From assembly GCF_056712565.1 (NCBI RefSeq), contig NZ_CM160072.1: a stretch of DNA of 64,000 bases; one strand, 5' to 3'. Made by a program: the position numbers. Positions 36,001 through 39,000 of the stretch are shown here, piece by piece. Numbering within the stretch: the first letter of the stretch is position 1; the number at the start of each line of letters is the position of its first letter.

Positions 36001-39000
36001 AGGTTTTAATGCAGCTATAGGTTTTGTATGGAATTTCTGATGACAAAAACAATCGTTATGGAATTCTTTGTCCTGATCTGCCCGCTTTGCGGGCAGGCTA
36101 ACGAACGTATTGTGTTTGTTGAAGGTTTTTCGACGTTGTTTTCCATCTGGGGGTGAATATTTATTCTTCCCGCCAGCATGACTCTATAGTCATTGCTACG
36201 ACAATGACTTATAAAGCTGGTTACTGAGCCTATACCTTTGTAATTCAAAAGTGATATCAGTTCACAACGCAATACTATTTTTAGATTATTTACTCTCACC
36301 CAGATACTGAATCAATGGATAATACCTTTTGATTTATCCCGACTCGGAAGAAGGTGGGATAAATATTCTCCTTCTATTGCCCCTTACTCCAACTATCATA
36401 TTTTACAATATCAACGAACCGTCCATGAAGGGCTGAAATTCTCTTCCTGAAACAGCTCTGTCAGCCCGCTAATCTGTTTCAGCCTCAGCACTTCATCCTG
36501 GTCCATGCCCAACTCTGTGCCAATACGCTCATCTGTCCAGCCCAGACGCGAAAGGTCCCTGACAATGTCAGACATTGACGTTATCTGGTGTTTTCCCCTG
36601 GCACGGTTATGCCGTATGGTTGCGGCAATACGTGATGCCTGTCCCTTTCTTTCCGGATTAATACAGGTCACTGGCAGCCAGCCCTTCAGACGTTTTCTCG
36701 TATCCGCTTTCCTGCCCAGCAACTGACGATGAAAACCATCCACGACCAGATAATGCTCCTTCTCTTCCGAAACCACCACAGGCTGCGTGAATCCATCCTG
36801 CTCCAGTGAATGTTTAAGCAGTTTTTTTTCACTGGAAGACATGACATTGGGATTGTAATCGTTGGCCACCACCTCATCCGCTTTCACCCACAACACACAG
36901 TCCACAGGCTCCTGTGCAAAAGGGCTGACCTCATGCAACACCCTGCGCAGATGATTAAGGGCTCGTATGGTCTCTTCTTCAGATCGTTCCTGACTGAAGT
37001 ACTGTCGAATCATGTTGCTCAATACTTCCACCTCAGGTGTCACAGAATCCCCCATTCCTTCCTCCTTTCTTTCATACGCTGCAGATAACGTTCATAGTGC
37101 CGGGGTTTGTTCGGACTGAAGGAGAGGGTCCGGCACCAGAAATCATTCTTTATGAGTGTCTTACAGATACGTCGCCAAGACGGGATATCCCGGCTCCCCA
37201 GGTCATTCTCCTGTTCATCCGGGATGTCATCCGGGAAGCCCCGCGTCTGATACCAGCGCAGGTAGACAGCAATTTTATTACGGTAATGTTCTGCCGTTCT
37301 TTCCGGCATCACATCCAGCAGGAACATCGCATAGCTACGCCAGGTATGATGAGGCGGCTTCGTGATACGCTTACGCAGGGCAAAATAGGCACCGCTCTCA
37401 TTGGCATAAAGCGCCCCGCTGGCAGCACCCGACACCCGCTCACACATCCTGGCCCAAGTTTCCGGCTCCAGAACATGGTAAAGCCACAGTCCCTTACGCT
37501 GTTCCGGGCCAAAAGGCTCACAGACCCGCATGTTGCGTAACGGCACGCCGGCACGGTACATCAGGTCATACAGGGGATTGTAGATAGCTCGGGTTCTGGC
37601 GTTATATATCCATATATCACGGGCTTTCCAGTCATACAACGGATACAAGGTGTAATAAAACCCTTCAGGTGACGCTGTGGTCCAGGGTTTATCATCTGCA
37701 TATCTCAGTTTGCGCTGAGACACCAGTCCCATAAAGCGATTGAGCGATTCATCAGCACGAACACCAGTCAGTATTGCCACTCCACACCGGTTACCGGCAA
37801 ACCAGGAAGAAAATGCCGGAACAAATTCTTCAAACGTCATGGCATACCGATAAAATGGGAAATACGACATATCTGTAATAGCGTCATCTGGTGGCTGACG
37901 AACCCACTCCACACCTGGTTCCCAGCATATCCATTCCGGCTGAAACTGAGAGACACCGTTTACCGTAGTCAGGGGGAGTGCCACCCAGTAAAAAGTCTCC
38001 GTCACATCCCGATACATCTCCCTCATCTTCAGAATGTGTGCAATTGTGCACTGGTACTGAGCTTCCCAGTCAATGAATAATACAGAGAAACGACGTTTCT
38101 TCCTGCGAGCCACATCGGCCGTAAGATGGAGCAGCACAGTAGAGTCTTTTCCTCCAGAAAAAGACAAACAAACAGATGAAAATGTCTCAAACAACCACTC
38201 AATACGGTGAATGGCCGCATGTAATACATTAACATCTGTTCTTATCTTCTGTATGGTTCCCATACATATCCTAGTATAAACTATCTTGGCAGTAATATTC
38301 TGAACTACAAACTTAAACCTTCTCATCAAGAAAAAGTTCTACCTTAAGGGTATATTGTTACTATCACGAGTTCATGATAGTTAAGTTTTTAGTAAAACAC
38401 GACATATGACGATACATATATTAGCAAAATTATGACAAATGAGGCTACCTTAACAAAAATTCATTAATAGCAAACACATAAATAAAGACTCTCCTACCAA
38501 AAAAACAGACTCTTCACTCCTTCTTAACTATTTTCATGAGAAATAATAAACAAGGAATTTATTACCTTTGAATACAAACTTATATATACAATGAACTTAA
38601 ACTCTTGAATCATTATCCAGAGAATATCATTAATTGGTGATGACCTAGCTATGCATGGCAGCATTCATGATAATGAGTATATACTAGCCAGAATGACACA
38701 AAGAGATATTTAACTAACTAATATATTGATAGTCAATGATGACAGATCGTAGTAATATATTAATACTTAGCCCTCTGAAATATCAAGTCATGTACGATGC
38801 TCCCGTTATTTTAATTTCGTTCTAGCTGTACTTTTGAATACAACCATAACTGATTATTGCCAACTGACTGAATGAAAAATATCAATAAATACAACAAACT
38901 TACTGCCTTTTCGTTTTATTTATAAGACGTTCCAACTACAAGAACAATATAGGCACATGATTATTCCAACAATACTGGACAAAAACTCCCGTATCTGAAG

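Follow-up and report, generated by a model that had tools for sequence, protein, structure and literature searches.

The ibrA/ibrB gene pair of Escherichia coli as a possible DNA-directed, ATP-dependent modification module

The ibrA and ibrB genes encode a PP-loop enzyme and a ParB-like protein, and make up a mobile cassette of two genes whose linkage is obligate in a range of bacterial phyla and in the phages of these. We tentatively propose that together they form a two-subunit, DNA-directed, adenylylation-dependent modification module, the effect of which is to de-repress silenced foreign genes. The copy analysed here lies on the minus strand of a stretch of 64,000 nucleotides from NCBI RefSeq assembly GCF_056712565.1, contig NZ_CM160072.1 (the whole stretch is referred to as the window), with ibrA at 37040..38263 and ibrB at 36411..37055. 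Judged by sequence identity, the pair is the E. coli ibrA/ibrB operon, already named and annotated, and so is a known feature. From 36300 to 39400 the window matches E. coli Nissle 1917 with 100% identity, and in that strain both proteins have identical (100%) counterparts: WP_001362826.1 (407 aa, labelled 'phosphoadenosine phosphosulfate reductase') for IbrA and WP_000502870.1 (labelled 'IbrB-like domain-containing protein') for IbrB. The genes of Escherichia phage PhiR5_2 that are labelled IbrA and IbrB are 92% and 88% identical to the window pair. These matches bear out the original prediction for this locus, which had recognised an ibrA/ibrB-like pair from the sequence alone.

The same prediction described the biochemistry of IbrAB as unresolved, and this still holds: a full-text literature search returned ibrAB in citations, annotations and transcriptome mentions only, and found no biochemical study. 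The value of returning to a known pair lies in this open biochemical problem, for which comparative data sharpen the predictions that can be tested. Our analysis narrows the options to an enzyme that is neither a redox nor an iron–sulfur (Fe-S) enzyme, within an obligate heteromer found in a DNA-metabolism context. The pair could reveal a new modification of DNA (or of RNA or protein), as well as the way in which some mobile elements activate virulence and adhesin genes that are silenced.

IbrA, IbrB and their predicted complex

IbrA (407 aa) combines a PP-loop ATP-pyrophosphatase domain of the phosphoadenosine phosphosulfate (PAPS) reductase fold (residues 1-260) with a basic, helical C-terminal domain, DUF3440 (residues 261-407; 37043..37483, minus strand; pI 9.6). 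Pfam recognises PF01507 (PAPS_reduct, in two pieces) and PF11922 (DUF3440), E 9e-25, an architecture common to all homologs listed. The alpha-beta fold of PAPS reductases and ATP pyrophosphatases is present and resembles adenosine phosphosulfate (APS) and PAPS reductases, and the nearest relatives in both fold and sequence belong to the oxyanion-adenylylating branch, represented by flavin mononucleotide (FMN) adenylyltransferase (FMNAT) and CysD, not to the tRNA enzymes. The PP-loop motif SFSGGKDS occupies residues 34-41 (38141..38164, minus strand; checked by translation), and 90% or more of a diverse set of 82 homologs retain each of S36, G37, G38, K39, D40 and S41. Further conserved residues in these sequences are D65/E67, G167-R169-E172-S173-R176, P208-D211-W212-D216-W218 and Y228-N229-Y232. 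No cysteine is conserved at the 90% level among the 82 homologs; C248, part of 'MRVCEP' in close relatives, gives way to D, S or A in distant homologs. Because the full set of ATP-type motifs is kept and no cysteine is conserved, we place IbrA among the ATP pyrophosphatases or adenylyltransferases, that is, PP-loop enzymes of the PAPS-reductase/FMN-adenylyltransferase/CysD fold that transfer the alpha-phosphate of ATP.

Two further observations concern the IbrA protein itself. The last ~75 residues (equivalent to 329-402; basic, with the pattern ...IPDE...PSW+R.C..LLKND...) also occur as a separate small open reading frame (ORF) near the pair in several viral loci (L068:4602-4835, L073:7985-8239, L078:8838-9128 and others), which suggests that the C-terminal subdomain is a separable module. 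In the IbrA homolog P0389, an intein is inserted at the conserved YN..YD motif; inteins are typically located at key sites of DNA-metabolism proteins.

In IbrB (214 aa), we assign the N-terminal part to the ParB/Srx type of nucleotide-binding domain and the part after it to a helix-turn-helix (HTH) of the ParB/KorB type. IbrB alone matches the Pfam family ParB_N weakly, with 22 of 44 family members matching, and searches of the PDB with the single sequences of IbrA and IbrB gave marginal matches only. A single IbrB sequence being too weak, its assignment required a family profile, which matched the N-domains of ParB and Noc (5e-7). In this hidden Markov model alignment NDYNPN (36846..36863, minus strand) falls on ParB box I (NPxQPR) and DGFHR (36726..36740, minus strand) on the GERR (GxxR) nucleotide-binding motif. 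Both are invariant in an alignment of 44 homologs (N65, N68, P69 and N70 in the first; D106, G107, H109 and R110 in the second), as is TIRHNRARGxH, which would correspond to ParB box III (ENLQR), with N150 invariant and no acidic residue present. The HTH (LGMDxDEVLRLKQIxGL) is highly conserved, and the segment that holds it (36456..36548, minus strand, containing LGMDQDEVLRLKQISGL) is strikingly conserved across phyla. It lies within an acidic C-terminal segment (residues 158-214, pI 4.4; residues 158-200 correspond to 36456-36584). This 'HTH' may be a protein interface, with DNA contact provided instead by IbrA or by the ParB N-domain.

Box I and GxxR equivalents, the N-domain fold and a KorB-like HTH are common to IbrB and a group that includes ParB/Noc, KorB, VirB and PadC, together with sulfiredoxin, SerK/SbnI and DpdB. 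Consistent with this, the IbrB part of our structural model resembles PadC (8.2), sulfiredoxin (8.1), Spo0J (8.0), and SbnI and SerK (7.4-7.9). VirB and KorB are CTP-dependent switches. IbrB differs from the ParB CTP switches in several respects: the apparent box III has no acidic residue, the partner is a PP-loop enzyme, and the C-terminal dimerisation domain is absent in both alignment and model, the protein stopping ~15 residues past the HTH. Furthermore, the ORF scan and the Nissle annotation place no ParA gene beside ibrAB, and no parS-like or palindromic repeats were found in the scanned intergenic region upstream of ibrA.

To approach the question of physical association, we modelled the two proteins as a fusion, IbrA-(G4S)6-IbrB, with AlphaFold2 from 29 paired sequences, and judged the result on predicted TM-score (pTM), per-residue confidence (pLDDT) and secondary structure. 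The pTM is 0.75 over 651 residues, the disordered linker included, and the model forms beta-strands at residues 6-12 of IbrA and 209-213 of IbrB, neither of which is seen when IbrA is modelled alone. Opposite charge on the IbrA C-terminal domain (pI 9.6) and the IbrB C-terminal segment (pI 4.4) accompanies these features. Taken together, the model is suggestive of complex formation. The original prediction had proposed this kind of structure prediction, and its description of a PP-loop (SGGKDS) ATP-pyrophosphatase-like protein beside a ParB/Srx-like protein agrees with the Pfam, conservation and PDB profile evidence. Neither protein was assigned to an unrelated family.

Distribution and genomic contexts of the pair

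In the phage collection, IbrA matches 224 records and IbrB 226, and the counts for the two proteins are equal in each of the eight genera present in both listings: Flavobacterium (90), Mycobacterium (60), Streptococcus (21), Arthrobacter (12), Bacillus (8), Microbacterium (5), Rhizobium (4) and Lactobacillus (3). Among the phage and IMG/VR loci with an IbrA homolog (88), 83 also have an adjoining IbrB homolog on the same strand. In the 78 with both genes close to full length, ibrA comes first in 41 and ibrB in 37, and the genes overlap or are separated by no more than 25 bp in 54 of these 78 comparison loci. The pair is found in phages of at least five phyla. Adjacency that is kept despite inversion of gene order argues for a physical or pathway partnership.

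The positions of the pair in phage genomes are varied. In cluster-B mycobacteriophages, genes for ParB-like, PAPS-reductase-like, IbrB-like and terminase proteins are consecutive, and in Flavobacterium phage FCL-2, reported to be lytic, the pair sits between terminase and portal. Arthrobacter phage Laroye has the pair adjoined by a methyltransferase and an HTH protein ahead of the large terminase, and Bacillus phage 035JT001 has a methyltransferase directly after the IbrA homolog. Streptococcus and Lactobacillus phages carry the pair between lysis and early genes. Among IMG/VR loci, nine of the ten commonest neighbour clusters matched PHROGs, eight of them in the category 'DNA, RNA and nucleotide metabolism' and one in a family of unknown function. 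In 19 loci an SNF2-type helicase is encoded immediately upstream of IbrA; a second helicase, exonucleases, Sak4, DnaB and NinG are also among these neighbours. The setting of the pair in replication, recombination and packaging modules, with methyltransferases and helicases adjacent, favours the suggestion in the original prediction that it may serve DNA modification or the control of mobile elements.

The tenth neighbour cluster is a protein of ~140 aa that we call 'X' (motifs WE..AGFY, SCEHYLTN and NRIAWLGQA), which is found with the pair in 55 of the 88 viral loci. In loci within the range L012-L089 it is either a gene of its own between ibrB and ibrA (for example, L013:5591-6013) or fused to the C-terminus of IbrB (L050:4827-5972). 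It had no match among PHROGs, Pfam or PDB profiles, and the window holds no copy. A second recurrent companion is a small GNAT, encoded between ibrA and ibrB in Ralstonia (L097:11227-11664) and on a metagenomic contig, and beside the pair in several viral loci (other positions are L103:2438-2872 and L012:7173-7598). It is also fused to the C-terminus of IbrA in P0280 and to the C-terminus of an SNF2-type helicase in L062:4212-6008. The middle gene of the Ralstonia locus was considered as a homolog of 'X' and rejected, as it is a GNAT. The recurrence of the GNAT hints at an acyl-transfer step in the pathway. Because 'X' and GNAT accompany the pair elsewhere, we regard the enterobacterial cassette as the minimal, two-gene form of a modular system.

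Of 5426 complete E. coli genomes, 2138 (39%) carry alleles with at least 80% nucleotide identity to the window pair, in up to four copies each. The allele at 99% identity or more is found in 841 genomes, and the same 841 retain 80% or more of a 3.1-kb segment in which a divergent operon headed by a PIG-L deacetylase gene begins. Across these 841 genomes, as measured by that segment, this ibrAB allele is always linked to the PIG-L operon. It resides in a fixed chromosomal island beside cobUST and the pks island. Other alleles occupy lambdoid prophages near Q, RusA and a methyltransferase, prophage ends beside antirepressors, and, in O157-type strains, an ibrA-ibrB-perC cassette that has been reported to be induced on epithelial adherence in Shiga toxin-producing E. 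coli. In one strain, the cassette is in a variable island adjoining a type II Zorya system; such islands also adjoin insertion sequence (IS) elements. Beyond E. coli chromosomes, ibrAB is present on 874 plasmids, among them virulence plasmids of Klebsiella pneumoniae on which the fec and iro loci flank it, and Listeria has a core pair, lmo1309/1310.

Genes for adhesins and iron uptake recur near ibrAB in the loci sampled, although virulence islands are rich in such genes anyway. The Klebsiella virulence plasmid pVir (L095) has FecA and a salmochelin cluster nearby; E. coli p100 (L096) a YadA-like protein, an OmpA-family protein and a serine protease autotransporter (SPATE); a Salmonella plasmid (L098) an inverse autotransporter and an aerobactin cluster (iuc/iutA); and plasmid A of E. 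coli strain M6 HyxB and a SPATE. Cah is ~4 kb from ibrAB in O157, and a YadA-like trimeric autotransporter is immediately upstream in Ralstonia (L097), in which IbrAB and the adhesin RadA are reported to rise together in an rprR mutant. In the window itself, the adjoining genes are a TonB-dependent receptor and the PIG-L operon. The adhesin neighbours echo the only published phenotype, described for ECOR-9, where IbrA and IbrB ('immunoglobulin-binding regulator') are reported to activate prophage eib genes (Sandt, Hopper & Hill 2002, J Bacteriol 184:3640, as cited in later work), since eib genes encode YadA-type adhesins. The ECOR-9 proteins belong to the same family and share the architecture (overlapping ibrA-ibrB, PAPS_reduct with DUF3440, ParB-like). 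The window allele is in a chromosomal island; other alleles are in prophages, the perC cassette or plasmids. The K-12 paralogs ybdN and ybdM are 59% (IbrA/YbdN) and 54% (IbrB/YbdM) identical at the protein level and show the same overlap and the same domains, but form a core-genome locus under CitR/YbdO. This adjacent LysR regulator represses ybdNM, and citR is itself described as H-NS regulated (PMC9068703).

Upstream of ibrA in the window is an AT-rich intergenic region of 990 bp (38264..39253) that separates it from the divergent PIG-L operon. Its GC content is 31%, compared with 35% for the first gene of the divergent operon and 50% for ibrAB. The original prediction of an AT-rich upstream region was thus correct as to its existence, but its limits (38330-39310, 950 bp) required revision. 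Searches of 38264-39253 found no Rfam family, no ORF of at least 50 aa and no strong repeats; promoter-like sites were no more numerous than in shuffled sequence, and terminators were not above background. In other E. coli strains, the region has received at least five independent IS insertions: IS1 at 38515-38523 and 38599-38607, IS3-family elements at 39067-39072 and 39122-39126, and IS5 at 39121-39132. At bgl, an H-NS-silenced operon is activated by IS insertion. The insertion pattern is reminiscent of this activation and would fit a curved, AT-rich and probably H-NS-bound promoter region. The xenogeneic silencing put forward in the original prediction is plausible, with indirect support from these insertions and from the described H-NS regulation of citR beside ybdNM.

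A possible modification module and its alternatives

The closest mechanistic analogy for IbrB/IbrA is DndB/DndC of the phosphorothioation system (with SspD and BrxP as relatives), in which, likewise, a ParB-like protein (DndB, with DGQHR) and a PAPS-reductase-fold ATP pyrophosphatase act on DNA. We treat this as analogy, not orthology. Compared with DndC and BrxP, IbrA has neither the conserved cysteines nor the Fe-S site, carries a DUF3440 tail instead, and gives only weak partial matches to models in PADLOC-DB v2 (BrxP, 23 bits, residues 15-95 only; DndC, 17 and 13 bits). The partners of DndC-type enzymes (the cysteine desulfurase DndA, DndD/E, Ssp and the BREX core) are all missing from the window according to ORFs and Nissle annotation. 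For these reasons IbrA was rejected as a DndC-type Fe-S phosphorothioation enzyme, and insertion of sulfur is unlikely. FMN adenylyltransferase (the PAPS domain of eukaryotic FAD synthase) and CysD, in turn, act on small molecules and have neither a ParB partner nor DUF3440; CysD also needs the GTPase CysN.

In the module that we tentatively favour, IbrA and IbrB would form a complex, with the C-terminal tail of IbrB against the N-terminus of IbrA, and IbrB, as the ParB-like subunit, would contribute nucleic-acid or nucleotide binding and bring the complex to DNA. There, a covalent modification would begin with the ATP-dependent adenylylation, by IbrA, of an oxyanion or oxo group of the nucleic acid. 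The logic would be that of DndB/DndC without sulfur, and the chemistry that of FMNAT and CysD. In some lineages, accessory proteins ('X', the small GNAT and the SNF2-type helicase) may complete or extend the modification. Lytic phages would use the mark to label or protect their DNA; in prophages and on enterobacterial islands and plasmids, it would act epigenetically to relieve silencing of AT-rich foreign genes, such as prophage eib. The window cassette, behind its 31%-GC and probably H-NS-bound promoter region, would likely be poorly expressed in the laboratory.

A bolder reading, which we consider doubtful, is that the pair represents a widespread and unrecognised nucleic-acid modification system, with an IbrB and IbrA core, optional 'X', GNAT and SNF2-type helicase, and a new ATP-dependent DNA mark. 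On that reading, the chemistry of the system would set it apart from Dnd, Ssp and Dpd, as it would involve neither sulfur nor Fe-S nor TGT. If true, the DNA mark would serve self-protection of lytic phages and epigenetic de-silencing of adhesin and iron-uptake genes on enterobacterial islands, prophages and virulence plasmids, the Klebsiella hypervirulence plasmids included.

Alternatively, the effect on foreign genes could arise without covalent change. IbrB may be an NTP-dependent clamp or spreader on AT-rich DNA that, like Shigella VirB or plasmid KorB, displaces H-NS, while IbrA makes, consumes or senses the nucleotide ligand. Arguing for this are the ParB N-domain of IbrB with its invariant GxxR equivalent and KorB-like HTH, and the position of the cassette at AT-rich, IS-targeted promoters beside horizontally acquired surface-factor genes. 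The reported H-NS regulation of citR, next to the K-12 paralog pair (PMC9068703), points the same way, and transcriptional activation of foreign genes is the sole reported phenotype. Counter to this, IbrB is without the clamp's C-terminal dimerisation domain and without an acidic residue in its apparent box III. Nor does a clamp account for a fully conserved catalytic PP-loop enzyme that is always present, for the pair in packaging and replication modules of strictly lytic Flavobacterium, Mycobacterium, Arthrobacter and Streptococcus phages, or for the GNAT, 'X' and helicase accessories. We judge this, the main rival, rather unlikely. It is less probable still that the substrate is RNA (tRNA, with IbrA acting like TilS, TtuA or ThiI) or protein (as for Cap9 or QatC), with IbrB as specificity or acceptor subunit. 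TilS, TtuA and Cap9 are among the structural neighbours, the near-invariant HTH lies inside an acidic C-terminal segment, and some pairs are part of core genomes. Nevertheless, in fold and in sequence IbrA best matches the FMNAT and CysD branch and not tRNA enzymes, the neighbours are replication, recombination, packaging and methyltransferase genes and not translation genes, and almost every ParB/KorB-type domain that has been studied is associated with DNA.

A cassette found in variable islands beside IS elements, and in one strain beside a type II Zorya system, could instead point to anti-phage defence, anti-defence or a toxin–antitoxin-like addiction module on mobile elements. TASmania lists the Listeria pair as a guilt-by-association toxin–antitoxin candidate, the PAPS-reductase-like BrxP is a component of type 4 BREX, and PAPS-reductase and ParBc partners occur in PANGU-like candidate systems. 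This explanation appears very improbable: IbrB matches none of the families in PADLOC-DB v2 and IbrA matches them weakly and in part, there is no sign of toxicity, and carriage by many lytic phages speaks against host defence. Anti-defence through DNA modification is already contained in the modification module. The possibility implied by the database name, a genuine PAPS/APS reductase with an auxiliary role in sulfur assimilation, is effectively refuted and was rejected. The RefSeq product name, the Pfam PAPS_reduct match and the fold similarity to APS/PAPS reductases speak for it, but the catalytic cysteine of CysH (ECGLH-type) is absent family-wide while the ATP-type SGGKDS PP-loop is intact. 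Scores against NCBIfam fall far below cut-off (32.8 bits versus 154 for NF002537, phosphoadenylyl-sulfate reductase; 30 bits versus 254 for TIGR02057, PAPS reductase), and the obligate partner is a ParB-like protein, not thioredoxin or sulfite reductase. As IbrA is routinely misnamed 'PAPS reductase' and included among the sulfur-metabolism genes of viruses, assigning its function would correct a widespread annotation.

Gene layout and surroundings in the window

The ORF scan shows that, on the minus strand, 36411-37055 (214 aa) overlaps 37040-38329 (429 aa, with a TTG start). For ibrA, we prefer the ATG at 38263 to the TTG at 38329, because AGGA lies 5 nt upstream of it and the alignment to the K-12 paralog begins at residue 3. 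The interval of the original prediction (36411-38329) consequently stands at its ibrB end and is shortened at the ibrA start. The overlapping two-gene operon that it described is present, the stop of ibrA and the start of ibrB sharing 16 bp (37040..37055, minus strand). Together with the GGAGG at 37061-37065 that precedes ibrB, this overlap indicates translational coupling of the two genes.

On the plus strand, beyond the AT-rich region, the divergent operon (39254..42508) comprises four genes, predicted from ORFs and Nissle annotation to encode the PIG-L deacetylase, a glycosyltransferase, an acetyltransferase and a YaiO-family outer-membrane barrel. The whole window corresponds to a Nissle-like B2 chromosome, running from the pks island through cobUST to the ibrAB island. 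Compared with Nissle 1917, it has lost 1 bp at about 34975 and has gained two IS insertions (42588-43865 and 44303-45741) that are absent from Nissle. The deletion affects the gene for the TonB-dependent receptor downstream of ibrB, which is a single intact gene of 2148 nt in Nissle 1917 and is broken here into ORFs 33867-35024 and 35021-36040. The start of the window (1-27000) falls within the colibactin (pks/clb) island, with clbB at 15851-25480 and clbA at 26094-26828, and the repeat region between clbB and clbR (about 25805-25860) shows a small length difference from Nissle 1917.

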